This document shows positions 1,915-31,850 of a stretch of 64,000 nt of DNA, one piece after another. A model generated the notes under the pieces. The model worked only from the letters and a program-made list of their open reading frames with translations, made no database searches and was not told the origin of the DNA. The stretch is taken from the NCBI GenBank assembly GCA_000004695.1, contig CM000152.2:3808001-3872000 (forward strand), given 5' to 3'. A program made the translations under genes and the position numbers. This DNA is from Dictyostelium discoideum (Eukaryota). Numbering within the stretch: the first letter of the stretch is position 1; every line of letters begins with the position of its first letter.

Positions 1915-6700
<4,786 letters not shown>

Positions 6701-9627: not shown

Positions 9628-10141
9628 CAAAAAAAAAAAAAACAAAAATCTTTTTGATTTTTTTTTTTTTCCCTAAAAATAGCGAATTACAGATAGTATG
9701 AGTTTCATTAAAACTTCAAAAGTTTAAAAAAATTGTAAACTAATTTTTTTTTTTTTTTTTTCCATTTGCAAAATTGATTTTTTTTTTTTTTTATCCATTT
9801 GCAAAACTGATTTTTTTTTTTTTTTTTTTCCCATATTCAACACTTGCCTGCACCCGAGATTCTATCTTTTAAAAATTAATTTCCCACAAACAAAACAAAA
9901 TCTCAAATTTAAAATTAAAAAAAAAAAAAATAAATAAAAAAAAAATAAATAAATAAATAAATAAATAAAATTTTAAATTTTATAAATAGATAAATGAAAA
10001 TAAAATAAAAGATTATTTTTAATAAAAAAAAAAAATTTTAATGGGTGCGATTTTTATTTTAAATAATTTATTATTACAATTGAAGTAATATTTAAAGTAT
10101 ATATATTATGTATATTATATATGTGTGTATATATTATATTA

Positions 10142-10512
10142 TCAACTACATGAACCTCCTGAACCTTTACCACCATGACCATGTGGTCCATGACCATGAC
10201 CATGATTATGTGATCCGCCTTTTCCTCCACAACTACCACCACTTGATTTAGCTCCACCGGTTAAATCACCACAACCACCACTACCACTACCACTACCACT
10301 ACCACAACTACCACTACCAACACTACATGCAATTGAATTTGAACCCATACTTGTTCCAATACCAAATGATGCCAAACTAGATTTTGAACTTGTCATTGAA
10401 CTTGACATTGATGAGATTGATGCTAATAATTTATTAATTTAATTAGTATTTAATTTATTTTTAAAAAAAAAAGGCAAATAAAATTTTTTATATACTTACA
10501 AAAGAGTGTCAT
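10142..10512 (-). CDS. hssA/B-like (2C/7E family) small Gly/Ser/Cys/His-rich protein, copy 1, 97 aa: join(10142..10422,10500..10512)
   Basis: A 13-nt first exon ATGACACTCTTTT is followed by GTAAGT. The 77-bp intron ends TTATTAG. The second exon reads in frame: [97 protein letters not shown]. The MTLFSSISS... start, NSIAC and DLTGG motifs match my memory of Dictyostelium HssA/B-like proteins. Confidence 0.65.
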
Positions 10513-11093
10513 TTTATTTTATTTTTTAAAATTTAATTTTAATTTGATTTGATTTGATTTATTTATATTATAATTCGTTTAATGAAAAAAAAAAAAAAGA
10601 ATAACTTTAAATTTATACTTTTTTTTTAAAGAATATTAAATCAAATCTCTTTTTTAAAAAATTATTCTTTTGTAAACTAACCAATTTTTTACAAATGTCA
10701 AAGTCTAAAAGGTTACCACAAAATTCAAATAAAGAATACATGGTTTAGTTTTTTCATTTATTTTTGTAAATATTCATTTTTTGACAGATTATACAAAAAC
10801 GGATAAAAATATATAAAATTGAAATTTCTAATTGATAAACAAATTTGTTTTTATTCAGATATAACACATCCCACAATTTTTATTAAATATTAAATAATTT
10901 ATGGTGGTAATGAAATAATAAAAAATAAACCCATAGAATATATAACAATACCCACATTTCAATTAATTTTAATTTTAACCTAAAAATAATATTCATGACC
11001 AACTTACAATTCAATTTTAATTTTATTTTGAAAAACATAACAACAAACCATTTGTATAATTTTAATTTTTTTATTAATAATAGAATCAAAAGG

Positions 11094-11131
<38 letters not shown>

Positions 11132-11175
11132 TATATTATATTAAATCTTTAATTTTATTGGTTTTAATTCATTTT

Positions 11176-11640
11176 TAGTTTTTTTTGATTTCTAATTATT
11201 TTTTATAAATGATATCATCTTCTTTTCAAAATGCCATAGTGCATAGATAAATCTTTCCTTTCTCTGACATTTGATTCGAATTGATTCATTTTATTTGTTT
11301 AGAAATAATATTAATATGATGATGATCAACCTTTCTTTATGATATAGTGCATAGATAAATCTTTCCTTTCTCTATCATTTTAATGGTATTGATTCATATA
11401 TTATCTAGATTATAATTGAATTTTAACCATTTTTAATTGGTAAAATTACTCTATAAAAAAAAATAATAAAGTTAGATTAAAATTGTTATTTTTTTATTTA
11501 TTAATTTTTTTTTATGGCTTTACCTTTTTTATATTTTTAAAGTATCAATCAACTATTATCTAAACCTTTTTAATTGTTAGAGTTAGATTTATTTTATATT
11601 TGTTATTTTTTTTTTACATTTGTATAAATGATTTTTTCAA
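11176..11640. repeat. Copy of the dispersed ~0.45 kb repeat family, in tandem unit 1. It contains two ~35-bp core motifs ATAGTGCATAGATAAATCTTTCCTTTCTCT(G/A)NCATTTGATT
   Basis: Shares long identical stretches (GATATCATCTTCTTTTCAAAATGCCATAGTGCATAGATAAATCTTTCC..., TTTGGTAAAATTACTCTATAAAAAA..AATAATAAAGTTAGATTAAAATTG) with 13296-13760, 15125-15660 and 31298-31850. Confidence 0.8.
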
Positions 11641-11710
11641 AAAACTTTCTATTTATACTCGATCATTTATCATAATAAAATTTAATTTTTATTTTTAGAT
11701 TTATTTATAA

Positions 11711-11760
<50 letters not shown>

Positions 11761-11785
11761 TGGTTAATCAACTAGAAAAATAAAA

Positions 11786-11792
11786 AAATTAA

Positions 11793-11831
<39 letters not shown>

Positions 11832-11880
11832 CTAAATAAATAAATAAACAAATAAATAAACAAATGAATTAATAAATAAA
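11786..11880. repeat. (AAAT)n microsatellite, specific to tandem unit 1
   Basis: Direct reading. It accounts for part of the length difference between units. Confidence 0.85.
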
Positions 11881-12211
11881 AAATAATAAATAATAAATTT
11901 CAGTATCAAGGTTCAAATTCTGTAGTAAATCTTAAGAGTACTACTGGTGAAAGGATTGATCAAGTTTAGGAAGAAGTTGATAATTATTTAATACAGGATT
12001 AAAATAATTTTTAAAATTCCCAAATAAACAAGATTTAATGGTGCAATGAAATAGTACATTTTTAAATTTAATATATAGATAATTAAAAATAAAAATAAAA
12101 TATTATTTTGAAAAAAAAAAAAAATTAAAATAGGAGCGATTTTTATTTTAAATAATTTATTATTACAATTGAAGTAATATTTAAAGTATATATATGTGTG
12201 TATATATTATA

Positions 12212-12578
12212 TTAACAACTACATGAACCTCCTGAACCTTTACCACCATGACCATGTGGTCCATGACCATTACCATGGCCATGATTATGAGGTCCACCTT
12301 TTCCTCCACAACTACCACCACTTGATTTAGCTCCACCGGTTAAATCACCACAACCACCACTACCACTACCACAACCACCACCACCACTACCGACACTACA
12401 TGCAATTGAATTTGAACCCATACTTGTTCCACTACCAAATGATGAGAAACTAGATCTTGAGCTTGTCATTGAACTTGACATTGATGAGATTGATGCTAAT
12501 AATTTATTAATTTAATTAGTAATTTAAAAAAAAAAAAAAGTAAATAAAATTTTTTAAAAACTTACAAAAGAGTGTCAT
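12212..12578 (-). CDS. hssA/B-like small Gly/Ser-rich protein, copy 2: join(12212..12495,12566..12578)
   Basis: Same 2-exon structure as copy 1 (MTLF | [55 protein letters not shown]...[21 protein letters not shown]). The upstream (GATTT)n pentamer run is conserved. Confidence 0.65.
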
Positions 12579-12720
12579 TTTATTTTATTTATTTTATTTT
12601 GATTTGATTTGATTTATTTTATATTTGGTATTTTAATAATTAGTTTAATGGAAAAAAAATTAAAAATAACTTTTAATTTATACTTTTTTTTTTTTTTTTT
12701 TAAGAATATTAAATCAAATC

Positions 12721-12767
<47 letters not shown>

Positions 12768-13295
12768 ATTTTAATTATTCTTATTTGTAAATAAACCAAT
12801 TTTTTACAAATGTCAAAGTCAAAAAGGTTACCACAAAATTCAAATAAAACAAAAAACTTGGTTTTATTATTTTATTTATTTTGTAAATATTCATTTTTTG
12901 ACAGATTATACAAAAACGGATAAAAATATATAAAATTGAAATTTCTAATTGATAAACAAATTAGTTTTTATTCAAATATACCACATCCCACAATTTTTAT
13001 TAAATATTAAATAATTTATGGTGGTAATGAAATAATAAAAAATAAACCCATAGAATATATAACAATACCCCCATTTCAATTAATTTTAATTTTAACCTAA
13101 AAATAATATTCATGACCAACTTACAATTCAATTTTAATTTTATTTTGAAAAACATAACAACAAACCATTTGTATAATTTTAATTTTTTTATTAATAATAG
13201 AATCAAAAGAAAATTTAAAAAAAAAAAAAATAAAATAAAATTTATTTTATTTTATTAAACCTTTTTAATTTAATTATTGAGTTTTATTTTATTTT

Positions 13296-13760
13296 TAGTT
13301 TTTGATTTCTAATTTTTTATTTAAAAATGACATCATCTTCTTTTCAAAATGCCATAGTTCATAGATAAATCTTTCCTTTATCTGACATTTGATTTGAATT
13401 GATTCATTTTATTTGTTTAGAAATAATATTAATATGATGATGATCAACCTTTCTTTATGATATAGTGCATAGATAAATCTTTCCTTTCTATCATTTTAAT
13501 GGTTTTGATTCATATATTATATTTTCTAGATTATAATATAAACCATTTTTATTAGGTAAAATTACTCTATAAAAAATAATAATAAAGTTAGATTTAAATT
13601 GTTATTTATTTTTTTATTTTATTTTTTTTATTTTACATTTTTTTATATTTTAAACTATCAATGAACTATTATCTAAACCTTTTTAATTGTTAGAGTTAGA
13701 TTTATTTTCTATTTGTTATTTTTTTTTTTACATTTGTATAAATGATTATTTTTTTTTTTT
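13296..13760. repeat. Copy of the dispersed repeat, in tandem unit 2
   Basis: Same motifs as 11176-11640. Confidence 0.8.
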
Positions 13761-14027
13761 TTTTACTGGTGAAAGGATTGATCAAGTTTAGGAAGAAGTT
13801 AATAAATATTTAATACAGAATTAAAATAATTTTTAATATTCCCAAATAAACAAGATTTAATGGTGCAATGAAATAGTACTTTTTTTAATTTTAATATATA
13901 GATAAATAAAAATAAAAATAAAATATTATTTTTAAAAAAAAATTTAAATAGGAGCGATTTTTATTTTAAATAATTTATTATTACAATTGAAGTAATATTT
14001 AAAGTATATATATGTGTATATATTATA

Positions 14028-14398
14028 TTAACAACTACATGAACCTCCTGAACCTTTACCACCATGACCATGTGGTCCATGACCATGTCCATGACCATGA
14101 TTATGAGATCCACCTTTTCCTCCACAACTACCACCACTTGATTTAGCTCCACCGGTTAAATCACCACAACCACCACTACCACTACCACTACCACAACTAC
14201 CACTACCTACACTACATGCAATTGAATTTGAACCCATACTTGTTCCACTACCAAATGATGCGATACTTGATCTTGAACTTGTCATAGAGCTTGACATTGA
14301 TGAGATTGATGCTAATAATTTAATAAATTAATTAGTAATTAAATTATTTAAAAAAAAAAAGGTAAACAAAATTTTATATACTTACAAAAGAGTGTCAT
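14028..14398 (-). CDS. hssA/B-like small Gly/Ser-rich protein, copy 3: join(14028..14311,14386..14398)
   Basis: Same structure (MTLF | [55 protein letters not shown]...). GTAAGT donor at 14385..14380. Acceptor CTAATAA on the plus strand. Confidence 0.65.
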
Positions 14399-14526
14399 TT
14401 TATTTTTTAAAATTTTATTTTAATTTGATTTGATTTGATTTCTTTATTTTAAAAATTCGTTTAATGAAAATAAAAAAAAGATAAACATTTAATTTATACT
14501 TTTTTTTAAGAATATTAAATCAAATC

Positions 14527-14564
<38 letters not shown>

Positions 14565-15124
14565 TTCTAATTGTAAATTAACCAATTTTTTACAAATGTC
14601 AAAGTCAAAAAGGTTACCACAATATTCAAATAAAACAAAATACTTTGTTTAGTTATTTTATTTATTTTTGTAAATATTCGTTTTTGACAGATTATACAAA
14701 AACGGATAAAAATATATAAAATTGAAATTTCTAATTGATAAACAAATTAGTTTTTATTCAACGAAACCACATCCCAAAATTTTTATTAAATATTAAATAA
14801 TTAAATAATTTATGGTGGTAATGGAATAATAAAAATAAACCCATAGAAAATATAACAATACCCCCATTCCAATTAATTTTAATTTTAACCTAAAAATAAT
14901 ATTAATGACCAACTTACTATTCAATTTTAATTTTATTTTGAAAAACATAAAAACAAACCATTTGTATAATTTTAATTTTTTATTAATAGATATTTTAATT
15001 TTTTAATAGATATTTTAGAATTAAAAAGAAATAGTTTTTTAAATTAATTTAATTGATATTTTAAACAATAATGAAAAAAAAAAAACATATTTTATTAAAC
15101 CTTTTTAATTTTTTATTTTATTTT

Positions 15125-15447
15125 TAGTTTTATTTGATTTCTAATTATTTATTTATAAAATGATATCATCTTCTTTTCAAAATGCCATAGTGCATAGATA
15201 AATCTTTCCTTTCTCTGACATTTGATTAGAATTGATTCATTTTATTTGTTTAGAAATAATATTTAAATGATCAACCTTTCTTCATGATTTAGTGCATAGA
15301 TAAATCTTTCCTTTCTCTATCATTTGATTGGTATTGATATTATCTAGATTATAATTGAAAGTAAACCATTTTTATTTGGTAAAATTACTATAAAAAAATA
15401 ATATTAAAGTTAGATTTAAATTGTTATTTATTTATTTATTTATATAT

Positions 15448-15512
<65 letters not shown>

Positions 15513-15660
15513 TTTTTTTAATAACTTTACCTTTTTTTATTATATTTTTAACTGTCTATCAACTTTTATCTAAACCTTTTTAATTGTTAGAGTTAGATTT
15601 ATTTTCTATTTGTTATTTTTTTTTTTACATTTGTATAAATGATTATTTTTTTTTTTTTTC
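15125..15660. repeat. Copy of the dispersed repeat, in tandem unit 3, including an (ATTT)n tract at 15421..15510
   Basis: Same motifs as 11176-11640, plus an (ATTT)~22 expansion. Confidence 0.8.
15421..15510. repeat. (ATTT)n microsatellite, ~22 units
   Basis: Direct reading. Confidence 0.9.
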
Positions 15661-15988
15661 AAAAAACTTTCTATTTAAACTCTATCATTTATCAATTTTT
15701 TAAATTATTTGAAATTAAAAAAAGGAAATTTTACTATTTAAAGTAAAATCCAATAGCCAAAGAGAAAATTTCCATATCTGGAAATATTCAAAATAAGAAA
15801 ATGGTAAAAGGGTAATTTAATATATTCTTAGTTTCTTAATAAAATGTAATTTTTATTTTTAGATTTATTAAAAAAAAAATAAAAAAATAAAAAAAAAAAA
15901 AAAAAATATGATAACATATTTTATGATTATTTGTTTGAGAAATAAAATAATAAAAAATCACAAATAAAAAGAATTCTTAATTTATTTT

Positions 15989-16020
<32 letters not shown>

Positions 16021-17513: not shown

Positions 17514-19473
17514 ATTTAATAGAGTTACAGAAATTTTAAATGGAAAAGGATTAAGAAAAGAATTAATATCAAAGAATGATGTTTCATATTATTTTTACCC
17601 AGATTGTAAAGTTGGTGATATTAAACCAATAAATGAAAGAGCATTGAAAACCAAGAAAAAGAAAGCATTGGGTGGTGACGCAGTGTTGATTAGGGGAAGC
17701 ATCGATAGGGTTGAGAGAGATTTAACTTATGAACAATTTTTAAGATTTGAAGAATTCTTTTCACCAAAACAAAGAGTATTCGATTTTGAAAATAATTATG
17801 ATGGTACGGGTTCCACTGATTTACTCTCAGTTTTATTTGAAAGTTCAACATGGAATTATAAAATTGATAAAGTTCAAAATGGCAGATACTTAAAGTTTCC
17901 TAATAATGCTGTTACAACCGATTGGAAGTTTGAGAAGAAACAACCTCATTCAATATTGAATGAATACAAAGCTGTCATTCAAGATACAACAATTTCAATT
18001 GACTCATTTTCAATTGGTCCTAATAATAGTTCACCATTCTTTTCAACTGCGACAATTAACAATGGTCCATTGGTAATCTATTCAAATCTTACAAAGAAAA
18101 AAGATGAATCAACTCATAATGTTTGTCATCGTGTTTTATATTATTTAGTAATTTTACAACAAAGATTATTAGGTTTTTCAAATGATGATAACAATATTGA
18201 AAATGATAAAAATAATTTTAGTTTTAAAAATGATTATTTAATTGAATTTAAAGAATTTGAAGAATTTGAAAATTTAAAAAATAATAATAATGATAATAAT
18301 AATGAAAATACTACAATTACTACAACAACAACAACAACAACAACATTAACAACAGTAAATACAACAAAAAATAATACAGAATTAAAAAAAAAATCAATAA
18401 TTGAAAAAACTGAAAATTTTATTAAAAATATTAAAAATGATAATGATATTATAACATTTTATGGTATTAAAATGAATAGAAATAATAAAGTAATTTATGT
18501 TACAAAAGGTATATCAAATATTGTTATAAATGAAAATGATAAAAAGAAAAAAGTAGAATTTGGTGATGAAGTTGTTGTTTCATTTTCATATTATTTAGCT
18601 GATGGGAAATTGGTAAAGGATCAAACTGAATTAACCATAACAGTTGGTGAATCTCAAAGTTGTATAGATGGTGTACACCATTCGTTAATGGAAATGCATG
18701 AAGGTGATTTAGTATTATCCATCGTTCATTCGAAATATGCGTATGGTGAAAAAGGTATAATCTTTGGTGACATTGATTTTTGTAATACTCTAGTGCCACC
18801 ATCATCAACCTTGGGTATTTTAATAGAACTATTAGAGATTAAACATCGTTCAAAATTGACAAACACTAAAGTTTCATCATTATCATTGAATGAGAAAATC
18901 GATTTAATTAAATCAAATAATAAAGAGGCCAAAGAGCATTTCTTGCGTAAAGATTATTTTAAAGCTTTGAAAATCTATAGAGGTAATAGAGTCTTATGTA
19001 ATCTTGACCTTATTGGTAAAGTCGATAGCGATGACCTATGGGACGAAATTAAATTATTGGCAGCTCAAACCCACACAAATCTCGCACTTTGCTATTTGGC
19101 CATGCCTTCACCACATCATCAAAGAATCATTGAATATTGTAATGAATCAATAGTTTTCGAAGAGACTAGTAAAGCTTATAGATTATCATCAGATGCATAT
19201 AAAGAATTAAATAATATTGAAAAAGCAATTGAGCAAATGGAAATTGCTAAAGAAATCGATTTCAATATTGATGATCATTTTAAAAGTAATCCAGAAAATA
19301 AAAATAAAATTAATCCAGTGCAAACTCTCTCTCAATCTCAATATATTCAAAAGATTAATTCTTTAAAAAAATTGGAAAGAAAAGAACTTGAAGATGAAAA
19401 AAATGTTTATAAAAATATTTTAAAAAATTTAGAATCTTCTGGTTTTGATCTTGCAAAAGATGATCATTTTTAA
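17256..19473 (+). CDS. FKBP-type peptidyl-prolyl isomerase domain protein with C-terminal TPR repeats, ~699 aa: join(17256..17404,17523..19473)
   Basis: ATG at 17256 (MISQSSPDAYNFMKPYIPK...). GTAATA donor after ...FYDE. The 118-bp A-rich intron ends TTTAATAG and exon 2 continues in frame. FKBP domain GDEVVVSFSYYLADGKLVKDQTELTITVGESQSCIDGVHHSLMEMHEGDLVLSIVHSKYAYGEKGI. TPR-like region EAKEHFLRKDYFKALKIYRG...NLALCYLAM. Confidence 0.7.
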
Positions 19474-30939: not shown

Positions 30940-31297
30940 TGTTTTTTTCTTTTTTTTTAATTTCACAAAAAATGAAAAAAAAAAAAAATAAAAAAAATAA
31001 AAAAAAAAAAAAAAAAAAAACCAATTTGATATTTATTTTTTATTTATTTTCCTTTTTTTTTTTTTTACTTAACAACGATTTAATTTTATTTAATTTAATT
31101 TTAAAAAGAATTTAGTATAAAAAAATAGAACACCCATAAATACACGAAACGATATAAAATATAAAAAAAATGAATGTAACCATTGAATCTTTTTTTATTT
31201 TTTAATTAATTCAATTCTAGTTGTTCCTCAAAATAAAAAAAAAGTCGATTCTAAAAAATAATAAATGAAAAAAAAATATATTTTATTGGAGCTTTTT

Positions 31298-31651
31298 TAT
31301 AAATTATTTTTAGTTATTTTAATTTATTTTTAGTTTTTTGATTTCAAATTATTTTTATATTAATAAATGATATCATCTTCTTTTCAAAATGCCATAGTGC
31401 ATAGATAAATCTTTCCTTTCTCTGACTTTTGATTAGAATTGATTCATTTTATTTGTTTAGAAATAATGATGATCAACCTTTCTTTATGATATAGTGCATA
31501 GATAAATCTTTCCTTTCTCTATCATTTGATTGGTATTGATTCATATATTATATTATCTAGATTATAATTGAATTTAACCCATTTTTATTTGGTAAAATTA
31601 CTCTATAAAAAAATAATAATAAAGTTAGATTAAAATTGTTTTTTTTTTTAT

Positions 31652-31682
<31 letters not shown>

Positions 31683-31850
31683 TTACTTACCTTTTTTTTT
31701 ATATTCTTAAATAAAAATCAAACTCTAACAATTAAAAAGGTTTAGATAAAAGTTGATTGATAATCTCTAATCTCTAATAATTGACATTAACCATAATATT
31801 ATTGATAAATCTTTCTTTTATTTAACATTTGACTGGTACCTACGTTTAAA
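31298..31850. repeat. Fourth, solitary copy of the dispersed repeat family, located between the divergent PIG-V and ribokinase promoters, with an internal ~55-bp inverted segment
   Basis: 31370-31650 aligns with 11207-11490 (AATGATATCATCTTCTTTTCAAAATGCCATAGTGCATAGATAAATCTTTCCTTTCTCTGAC...). 31703-31757 (AAATCAAACTCTAACAATTAAAAAGGTTTAGATAAAAGTTGATTGATA) is the reverse complement of the unit segment TATCAACTTTTATCTAAACCTTTTTAATTGTTAGAGTTAGATTT. A third core-like motif (GATAAATCTTTCTTTTATTTAACATTTGACTGG) is at 31806-31840. Confidence 0.8.

Follow-up and report, generated by a model that had tools for sequence, protein, structure and literature searches.

Vicente et al. 2008 (PMC2257962) catalogued 96 sigN/hssA-like genes, which encode proteins of less than 120 amino acids (aa). 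In 89 of these 96 genes the open reading frame (ORF) starts with a first exon of 13 nt and is interrupted by one intron, and many of the genes form clusters whose intergenic regions are conserved (PMC2257962). Kin et al. 2018 (PMC6198379) restated the 13-bp first exon and gave the family nearly 100 genes. The members studied are developmentally induced (prestalk, cup or cAMP-induced; SrfA-, GBF- or Mef2A-dependent). Here we analyzed a window of 64,000 nt from Dictyostelium discoideum (contig CM000152.2, positions 3,808,001 to 3,872,000 of the forward strand), in which three minus-strand genes, named c1, c2 and c3, form a tandem array. We assign them with high confidence to the Dictyostelium-specific hssA/2C/7E family (sigN, HssA/B-like, PF05710). 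Each gene is preceded by a pair of hairpin-like modules, which are described after the genes.

The closest described arrays are sigN Groups 1 and 2 of chromosome 2, with 6 genes in 7 kb and 7 genes in 10 kb, respectively. Like the present array, they consist of very similar paralogues about 1-2 kb apart, and protein identity within a group is about 95%. However, they belong to another subfamily (34% identity to SigN1 in the catalogue) and follow another orientation scheme: Group 2 has inverted gene pairs with palindromic promoters (PMC2257962), whereas the present array is head-to-tail. Both groups have conserved promoters with G-rich (GBF-like) boxes, and in the present array, too, a heptamer of this kind is found once per unit, at about -444 to -495. 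For sigN there are antibody and lacZ data, whereas the present array is known from sequence.

Gene models and family membership

The three two-exon genes are as follows.

10142-10512, minus strand: gene c1, 97 aa; exon 1 10500-10512, intron 10423-10499 (77 nt, GTAAGT..TATTAG), exon 2 10142-10422 (281 nt with stop); PF05710 E 1.2e-12; probably sigN153
12212-12578, minus strand: gene c2, 98 aa; exon 1 12566-12578, intron 12496-12565 (70 nt), exon 2 12212-12495 (284 nt); PF05710 E 3.3e-12; probably sigN134
14028-14398, minus strand: gene c3, 98 aa; exon 1 14386-14398, intron 14312-14385 (74 nt), exon 2 14028-14311 (284 nt); PF05710 E 4.3e-14; probably sigN149

Exon 1 of all three genes has 13 nt, encoding MTLF plus one base, the introns are of the type GTAAGT..TAG, and the frame is restored in exon 2. 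All intervals open with ATGACACTCTTTT and then GTAAGT, and in each gene a single AG acceptor keeps the frame open to the stop codon. The predicted spliced junction of exon 1 and exon 2 is ATGACACTCTTTT followed by CATCAATC. The 64 kb contain exactly three occurrences of the 18-mer ATGACACTCTTTTGTAAG, which spans exon 1 with its donor site, compared with 0.04 expected. The first-pass annotation of this DNA had already proposed these gene intervals with a 13-nt exon 1, an intron of about 70-77 nt and an exon 2 of 281-284 nt, and it was exact to the base.

The products match PF05710 ('Coiled'), the Pfam model of the HssA/B-related family, over its full length (profile positions 1 to 89 or 90 of 90; E 3.3e-12 to 4.3e-14; 47.5-53.6 bits, with a cut-off of 21.4 bits). 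The nearest named protein is HssA/B-like protein 64 of strain AX4 (hssl64), with 69-71% identity at 98% coverage, and weaker matches were hssl49 and hssl52 of AX4 and unnamed Dictyostelium proteins. A word-indexed search of 5.8 billion proteins returned matches in Dictyostelium only. An exhaustive search of 1.84 billion representatives with the exon-2 ORF returned only three matches, one being hssl64 and two having no names. No relative of the products was found in PDB.

The products have 97-98 aa with 30-32% Gly, 28-30% Ser, 5-6% Cys and 6-7% His, and these four residues together make up about 71%. They are laid out as a conserved N-terminal MTLFSSISS...SNSIAC block, six spaced Cys and an (H-G/N) tract, and their N-terminal 37 residues or so align with hssl64, hssl49 and hssl52. 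With the hssA/2C/7E family they share the full-length hidden Markov model match, this N-terminus, the length below 120 aa, the Gly/Ser/Cys-rich composition and the sizes found in the catalogue. The C-terminal half is different: it is a His-Gly/Asn tract in the array genes, whereas hssl49 and hssl52 have (GL)n and CCGGPCCGI there. The protein hssl64 shares the SVxxx... layout, but it has 88 aa, and both the GSG/CG run and the greater part of the His-Gly tract are missing. Its gene is on a 3.60-Mb contig, probably chromosome 6 by its size, which is not that of the chromosome 3 matches. The HssA/B-like identity and the Gly/Ser/Cys/His-rich composition that were first proposed are thus supported by the PF05710 and hssl64 matches. 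The additional claim that the proteins differ only in the GSG/CG run was too narrow, since they also differ at positions 18, 21, 22, 26, 73 and 79 and in the length of the HG run, and c1 has lost the last Cys.

AlphaFold gave the products a mean predicted local distance difference test score (pLDDT) of 47 and a predicted template modelling score (pTM) of 0.10, with no secondary structure and no predicted fold. Mammalian keratin-associated proteins and plant glycine-rich or Gly/His-rich peptides are likewise small low-complexity products which are encoded in tandem arrays and show in-frame differences of repeat length. They have no sequence relationship to the present array and no 13-nt first exon, they come from other organisms with another cell biology, and the likeness is an analogy in the way of working only.

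Three entries of the 2008 catalogue (Additional file 1, PMC2257962) correspond to these genes.

sigN153 (DDB0215222), chromosome 3: 97 aa, intron 76, exon 2 280
sigN134 (DDB0215224), chromosome 3: 98 aa, intron 69, exon 2 283
sigN149 (DDB0215225), chromosome 3: 98 aa, intron 73, exon 2 283

The intron and exon 2 values of the catalogue equal those of c1, c2 and c3 minus a constant 1, as end-minus-start arithmetic gives, and no other chromosome 3 triple of the catalogue fits. Because sizes and introns fit these three chromosome 3 entries, we regard the genes as already catalogued: c1, c2 and c3 are very probably sigN153, sigN134 and sigN149, matched by chromosome, sizes and adjacent identifiers only. 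The array, the 13-nt first exon and the clustering appear to be already known.

Structure, integrity and history of the array

Each gene lies in a longer repeat unit, as determined by self-BLAST of 9.0-17.5 kb, three-unit alignment and, for unit 1, Tandem Repeats Finder (TRF).

9971-12059, minus strand: repeat unit 1, c1 and about 1.5 kb of upstream region (self-BLAST, three-unit alignment, TRF)
12060-13882, minus strand: repeat unit 2, c2 and upstream region (self-BLAST, three-unit alignment)
13883-15968, minus strand: repeat unit 3, c3 and upstream region (self-BLAST, three-unit alignment)

Self-BLAST gave three direct units, in which 9971-11637 matched 12060-13751 (87%), 11942-13646 matched 13764-15467 (86%) and 9971-11539 matched 13883-15478 (84%); the claim of a three-copy tandem array was therefore borne out. 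The three units are arranged purely head-to-tail. Clear similarity of unit 3 stops near 15700 and is patchy to 15968. The offsets between units are 2089 and 1822 bp and the ATG-to-ATG spacings 2066 and 1820 bp, so the periods of 2091 and 1818 bp quoted before hold within the choice of register. Alignment and TRF showed that unit 1 has about 270 extra bp (11673-11941), mostly a poly(A) run of 49 nt together with an (AAAT)31 stretch, and that the unit edges fall at simple A/T repeats. Identity in the three-unit alignment is 100% for exon 1, about 95% for exon 2, 88-90% for the intron, 85-92% for the aligned upstream region and 89-97% for the 3' flank. The units were called near-identical before, but with such values they are rather highly similar.

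All intergenic ORFs of at least 35 aa in the units are AT-rich and shorter than 70 aa, and the longest one (68 aa) is not conserved in unit 3. Just beyond the proximal end of the array, at 9737-9827, a 33-bp unit AAACTGATTTTTTTTTTTTTTTTTCCATTTGCA is repeated 2.7 times. CATTTG-containing stretches related to this repeat are also present within unit 2 (13711-13763) and unit 3 (15608-15660).

The window has a GC content of about 20%. Its 603-aa phosphoglucomutase ORF (pgmB) is identical to DDB_G0280897 of D. discoideum AX4. The ORF at 17644-19473, just past the array, is the FKBP-domain protein DDB_G0280877, and the array is directly upstream of it. The chromosome-level assembly GCA_054883475.1 (CM142509.1, 6.43 Mb; locus L006) is 99.6% identical over window positions 7213-29502. 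The locus is D. discoideum AX4-type chromosome 3. Another species had been considered, since the best protein match was only 69% identical, but the identical pgmB ORF and the 99.6% match of L006 spoke against it.

Units which are 84-92% identical and flanked by long homopolymers are hard to assemble, and three copies could be produced by a mis-expanded or mis-collapsed repeat. For this array such an artefact is hardly credible. Assembly GCA_054883475.1 contains the same three genes in the same order, with products identical to those of c1-c3, and over window positions 9900-16000 (6.1 kb) it differs by 0 substitutions and 4 indels (3 in homopolymers). The copies can also be distinguished from each other, since about 5% of exon-2 positions differ, and the three genes were listed in the 2008 catalogue. 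Because an independent assembly has three genes with identical products, we consider the array as real. The worry that arrays of this kind are easily collapsed does not apply here: the array is neither collapsed nor inflated.

The accompanying warning of mis-annotation was justified. In four of five recent NCBI assemblies (syntenic loci L004-L008) no gene is on record at any hssA-like copy, and in the fifth (L005) the only model (5025-5652, 120 aa) joins the first exon of a truncated copy with the gene next to it. The copies are missed or mis-modelled in all five new Dictyostelium assemblies, and the pipelines evidently overlook the 13-nt exon, as had been said of ORF finders.

Syntenic loci were fetched from other genomes with the FKBP neighbour as anchor, and they contain the following copies.

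L004, 'D. discoideum' GCA_054859385.1: two genes and a gene-less remnant of the upstream segment
L007, 'D. discoideum' GCA_054859355.1: three genes, spacing 2536 and 1226 bp
L005, D. cf. discoideum: two full genes and a truncated copy
L008, D. citrinum: two genes, identical proteins
L009, D. firmibasis: no copy at the syntenic site

The array is thus present at the same syntenic site in the AX4-type genome, two divergent D. discoideum strains, D. cf. discoideum and D. citrinum, and in the related genomes it has 2-3 copies spaced by 1.2-2.5 kb. The truncated copy of D. cf. discoideum (L005 5392-5652) consists of exon 1, the intron and 28 exon 2 codons, and lies 260 bp upstream of a full copy. 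The gene-less remnant (L004 3816-4923) contains a hairpin pair and lies beside the neighbouring 450-aa gene. In D. firmibasis a single diverged 79-aa PF05710 gene was identified (L011, CM069765.1, 10001-10325), with a 13-nt exon 1 and a family-type N-terminal start; its C-terminal half is unrelated and has no His-Gly tract. This gene is on the pgmB chromosome and the FKBP orthologue is on another one, so synteny of the array is broken in this species. Neither array nor hairpin modules were found in the D. firmibasis loci L009 and L011.

For the coding comparison we used 12 full copies from five genomes (AX4-type and four others, the latter with 9 orthologous copies), which gave 66 pairs. In all 12 copies the start codon, the GT..AG intron and the reading frame are retained, as is the C-terminal GGKGSGGSC(S/G)C, and all length differences among them are multiples of three. 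The ratio of the proportions of non-synonymous and synonymous differences (pN/pS) was 0.00-0.59 in 66 of 66 pairs; between c3 and the L004_b copy, for example, there are 11 synonymous differences and 1 non-synonymous difference. As no pair reaches a pN/pS of 1 and every indel is in frame, selection acts on the protein, and on this comparison the peptide is under clear purifying selection.

Copy number and spacing clearly turn over between the genomes, which is consistent with unequal exchange. The first-pass annotation had proposed a recent amplification, and one could suppose that the array was amplified very recently in the AX4 lineage and is still being homogenised. The variable copy number and spacing would fit this, as would the identical proteins encoded by both D. 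citrinum copies and the somewhat closer similarity of copies within a genome (pS 0.03-0.10) than between genomes (0.08-0.19). A neighbour-joining tree of the 800-nt gene region also grouped c2 with c3 (86% bootstrap). The same tree, however, put c1 together with L004_a and L007_b (100%), and L004_b with L007_c (96%); it is a crude tree, made from identity distances in a short and gap-rich alignment. The phosphoglucomutase of these strains is 3% diverged from that of AX4 (97% identity for the L004 strain); for comparison, that of D. citrinum is 94% identical. Moreover, the AX4 paralogues show 7.6-10.4% synonymous differences, and 8-15% of their aligned upstream positions differ. We therefore judge a very recent amplification of the whole array to be rather unlikely. 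Because c1 groups with the L004 and L007 copies of strains that are 3% diverged, the split between c1 and c3 seems to be old and only that between c2 and c3 may be recent. Recent amplification thus holds at best for c2/c3, which may be a later duplication, and not for c1, which has positional orthologues in these strains.

The L004 and L007 assemblies are deeply diverged from the AX4-type window in general (phosphoglucomutase-2 97%, FKBP 96%, regional DNA about 84-92%). These strains and AX4 may not be conspecific in the usual sense.

Transcription signals and proposed function

The following signals recur at the three genes.

c1 10638-10647, c2 12711-12720, c3 14517-14526, minus strand: GATTTGATTT, just upstream of the TATA box (-135 in c1), kept as far as D. 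citrinum
c1 10611-10618, c2 12676-12683, c3 14492-14499, minus strand: TATA box GTATAAAT, at -101 to -106 (c1 -106), kept as far as D. citrinum
c1 10546-10560, c2 12601-12615, c3 14427-14441, minus strand: (AAATC)3 run, at -37 to -48, probably 5' leader
c1 10067-10072, c2 12156-12161, c3 13974-13979, minus strand: first AATAAA past the stop codon, 49-70 nt

In sense direction, the order before each ATG is an A-run, GTGATTTGATT(T), the TATA box, a T-run, CATTAAAC and (AAATC)3. The A-run has 31 nt in c3 and 41 nt in c2 and is absent in c1. The GTGATTTGATT(T) element is at -128 to -142, and the T-run follows the TATA box at -81 to -86 (c1 -86). Only four upstream blocks reach 18/20 identity in the four-way alignment of the AX4 units with D. 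citrinum; two of them are the TATA box and the GTGATTTGATT element, and the other two are distal.

The pentamer AAATC (GATTT on the plus strand) had been described as a conserved (GATTT)4 promoter run. It has three exact copies, to which c1 and c3 alone add a degenerate fourth; the run differs from strain to strain and is absent from D. citrinum copy b. Because the run is downstream of the TATA box and the T-run, it is probably located in the 5' leader and not in the promoter. GATTTGATTT, before the TATA box, and AAATCAAATCAAATC, within the probable leader, form an inverted repeat around the TATA box and the presumed start site, and of this pair D. citrinum conserves only the upstream arm.

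We propose that the array consists of three autonomous, TATA-driven two-exon transcription units. Each of them appears complete in itself: the GTGATTTGATT element is followed by a TATA box near -100, then by an oligo-dT run and by a probable leader, about 80 nt long, with (AAATC)3; next come the 13-nt coding exon 1, a GT..AG intron of 70-77 nt, exon 2 and an AATAAA 49-70 nt past the stop codon. The units encode small disordered Gly/Ser/Cys/His-rich proteins under purifying selection. The array would have arisen, and would turn over, by unequal exchange, with long A/T and (AAAT)n runs as unit edges; the c1-type and c3-type lineages would be older than the split of AX4 from the divergent 'D. discoideum' strains, and the c2/c3 duplication would be later. 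Tandem copies would probably raise the dose of a small disordered peptide which could be cross-linked through Cys and probably binds metal through its His-Gly tract. By analogy with the studied members of the family, c1-c3 are probably developmentally induced and act in the multicellular stage.

Several points weigh against this picture. The cross-linking and metal-binding role is a probable one which we deduce from composition only. The catalogue match is one of chromosome, sizes and adjacent identifiers, and the tree is crude, as said above. The spliced junction of exon 1 and exon 2 had 0 matches in metagenome scans, and the exact products of c1-c3 are absent from a collection of 15 billion proteins which includes the Logan assemblies of public sequencing runs. 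Look-ups of the c3 exon-2 ORF among contigs and of the hssl64 locus likewise returned no record. In c1 the last Cys codon is replaced by TGA, which removes only the final residue. Finally, a passage of PMC6198379 states that a frame-shifted hssA construct still suppressed the phenotype of a STATa hypomorph. By this analogy, some effects of the family may act at the RNA level.

One could go further and suppose that these loci act mainly via their transcripts, or are decaying pseudogene copies, and not via small proteins; the frame-shifted construct, the premature TGA of c1, the lack of a predicted fold and the absence from protein databases would all agree with this. Nevertheless, we find it very unlikely, for pN/pS is well below 1 in every comparison, the indels are all in frame, and the start codon, splice sites and C-terminus are conserved across five genomes, while the TGA of c1 costs the last residue only. 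We thus keep to the reading of c1-c3 as protein-coding members of the hssA/2C/7E family.

Twin hairpin-like modules and significance for the family

Besides the genes, the array contains paired modules in each upstream region, and one more copy is dispersed in the window.

11222-11386, minus strand: modules upstream of c1 (A 11330-11386, B 11222-11278)
13340-13504, minus strand: modules upstream of c2 (A 13448-13504, B 13340-13396)
15173-15331, minus strand: modules upstream of c3 (A 15275-15331, B 15173-15229)
31254-31836, minus strand: dispersed copy outside the array (modules 31477-31533 and 31380-31436, degenerate third 31784-31836)

Every AX4 unit has two modules of 57 nt, about 100-110 nt apart and at about -750 to -920 from the gene start. 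A module consists of the 27-nt core GAAAGGAAAGATTTATCTATGCACTAT closed by a stem of 6-7 bp. The D. citrinum pair and nearly all copies of the divergent strains have the core without change, although the flanks diverge. The modules are the best-conserved non-coding sequence of the locus between AX4 and D. citrinum.

The stem is AUGAUA...UAUCAU in module A and (A)AUGUCA...UGGCAU(U) in module B; in D. citrinum it is UUGAUA...UAUCAA in module A, and module B has UGACAU. The stem keeps its pairing through double changes, from the AU/UA set in module A to a UG/CG pair set in module B, and from AU to UA in D. citrinum. Among 14 distinct sequences, 96.4% of cells were paired and three pairs change on both sides, although the independent covariation events are few (about 3-4). 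None of 500 shuffles reached the observed pairing or covariation score, and slid registers were only 19-48% paired. A covariance model found 22 strong copies in the loci examined, and a weak third copy at 31784-31836.

The closest described structures are the Class I RNAs, which have a Dictyostelium upstream sequence element (DUSE) about 60 nt upstream, 5' G or AAG, 3' CUGU and an 11-nt motif beside the 5' stem arm (PMC7919456). Like them, the modules have about 50-60 nt, a short terminal stem in which the pairing, not the sequence, is conserved and an adjacent conserved block, and are found in dictyostelids. But in the flanks read there is no CCC-containing DUSE about 60 nt upstream on the modules' own strand, the sole DUSE-like sequence being on the opposite strand, and the modules neither start with G or AAG nor end with CUGU. 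Their conserved block is a 27-nt loop, whereas that of the Class I RNAs is the 11-nt motif beside the stem. The Class I motif CCTTACAGCAA is absent from the array and has one chance-level match at 446-456, outside the array. Rfam gave no match in the whole window at gathering thresholds or in the array at E up to 1. We thus rejected the Class I assignment, for the defining features are absent and there is no Rfam match. Small nucleolar RNAs of the box C/D type were also rejected, as the C-box-like sequences are not conserved between copies. The cores could be read as micro-ORFs of 13-14 aa, but the frame is broken by a 2-nt deletion in module A of unit 2 and, in D. citrinum, by loss of the ATG; because these changes leave the nucleotides conserved, the peptide reading was rejected. 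A literature search by module sequence returned unrelated primer matches only, and a 22-nt hairpin core had 0 matches in metagenome scans.

The dispersed copy is located between a PIG-V mannosyltransferase gene and a ribokinase-like gene. Its 430-bp module-bearing segment (31254-31684) matches 11099-11535 at 84.7%, and the hssA-like gene itself is not included. In D. citrinum the orthologous intergenic region (L010 1935-2146) has only about 210 bp and the segment is missing from it, which makes the dispersed copy look like an insertion or duplication specific to the lineage. In each unit of the array the hairpin pair is flanked by the 25-mer CTAACAATTAAAAAGGTTTAGATAA (11556-11580, 13669-13693 and 15566-15590, minus strand), which is inverted in the dispersed copy (31725-31749, plus strand), and in units 2 and 3 a similar ATTAAAAAGGTTTAATAAAA is found on the pair's other side. 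CTAACAATTAAAAAGGTTTAGATAA and ATTAAAAAGGTTTAATAAAA are possibly the ends of a small mobile or recombining module.

It could be speculated from the recurrence of this 430-bp intergenic part, from its absence in the short D. citrinum region and from the inverted 25-mer that a mobile element makes up the whole repeated unit, or once spread it, with the genes as passengers. We consider this highly improbable: no transposase or reverse-transcriptase ORF is present in the units, the gene is not part of the dispersed piece, and the array is syntenic across the AX4-type genome, the two divergent strains, D. cf. discoideum and D. citrinum. As a tentative and, by our own estimate, doubtful suggestion, the modules could be a structured element which is linked to this hssA subfamily and has not been described before, either as paired small non-coding RNAs from the gene strand or as a hairpin-forming enhancer.

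The array itself matters little, as it rediscovers, correctly, a family of about 100 small genes which is specific to Dictyostelium and already published. Because genome annotations and the protein collection miss these copies, comparative counts of the family across species will fall short as long as the 13-nt exon is not modelled explicitly. The twin hairpin modules would be a cheap target for a reporter or small-RNA experiment. The clear purifying selection on the peptide bears on the question of RNA or protein which was raised for hssA.

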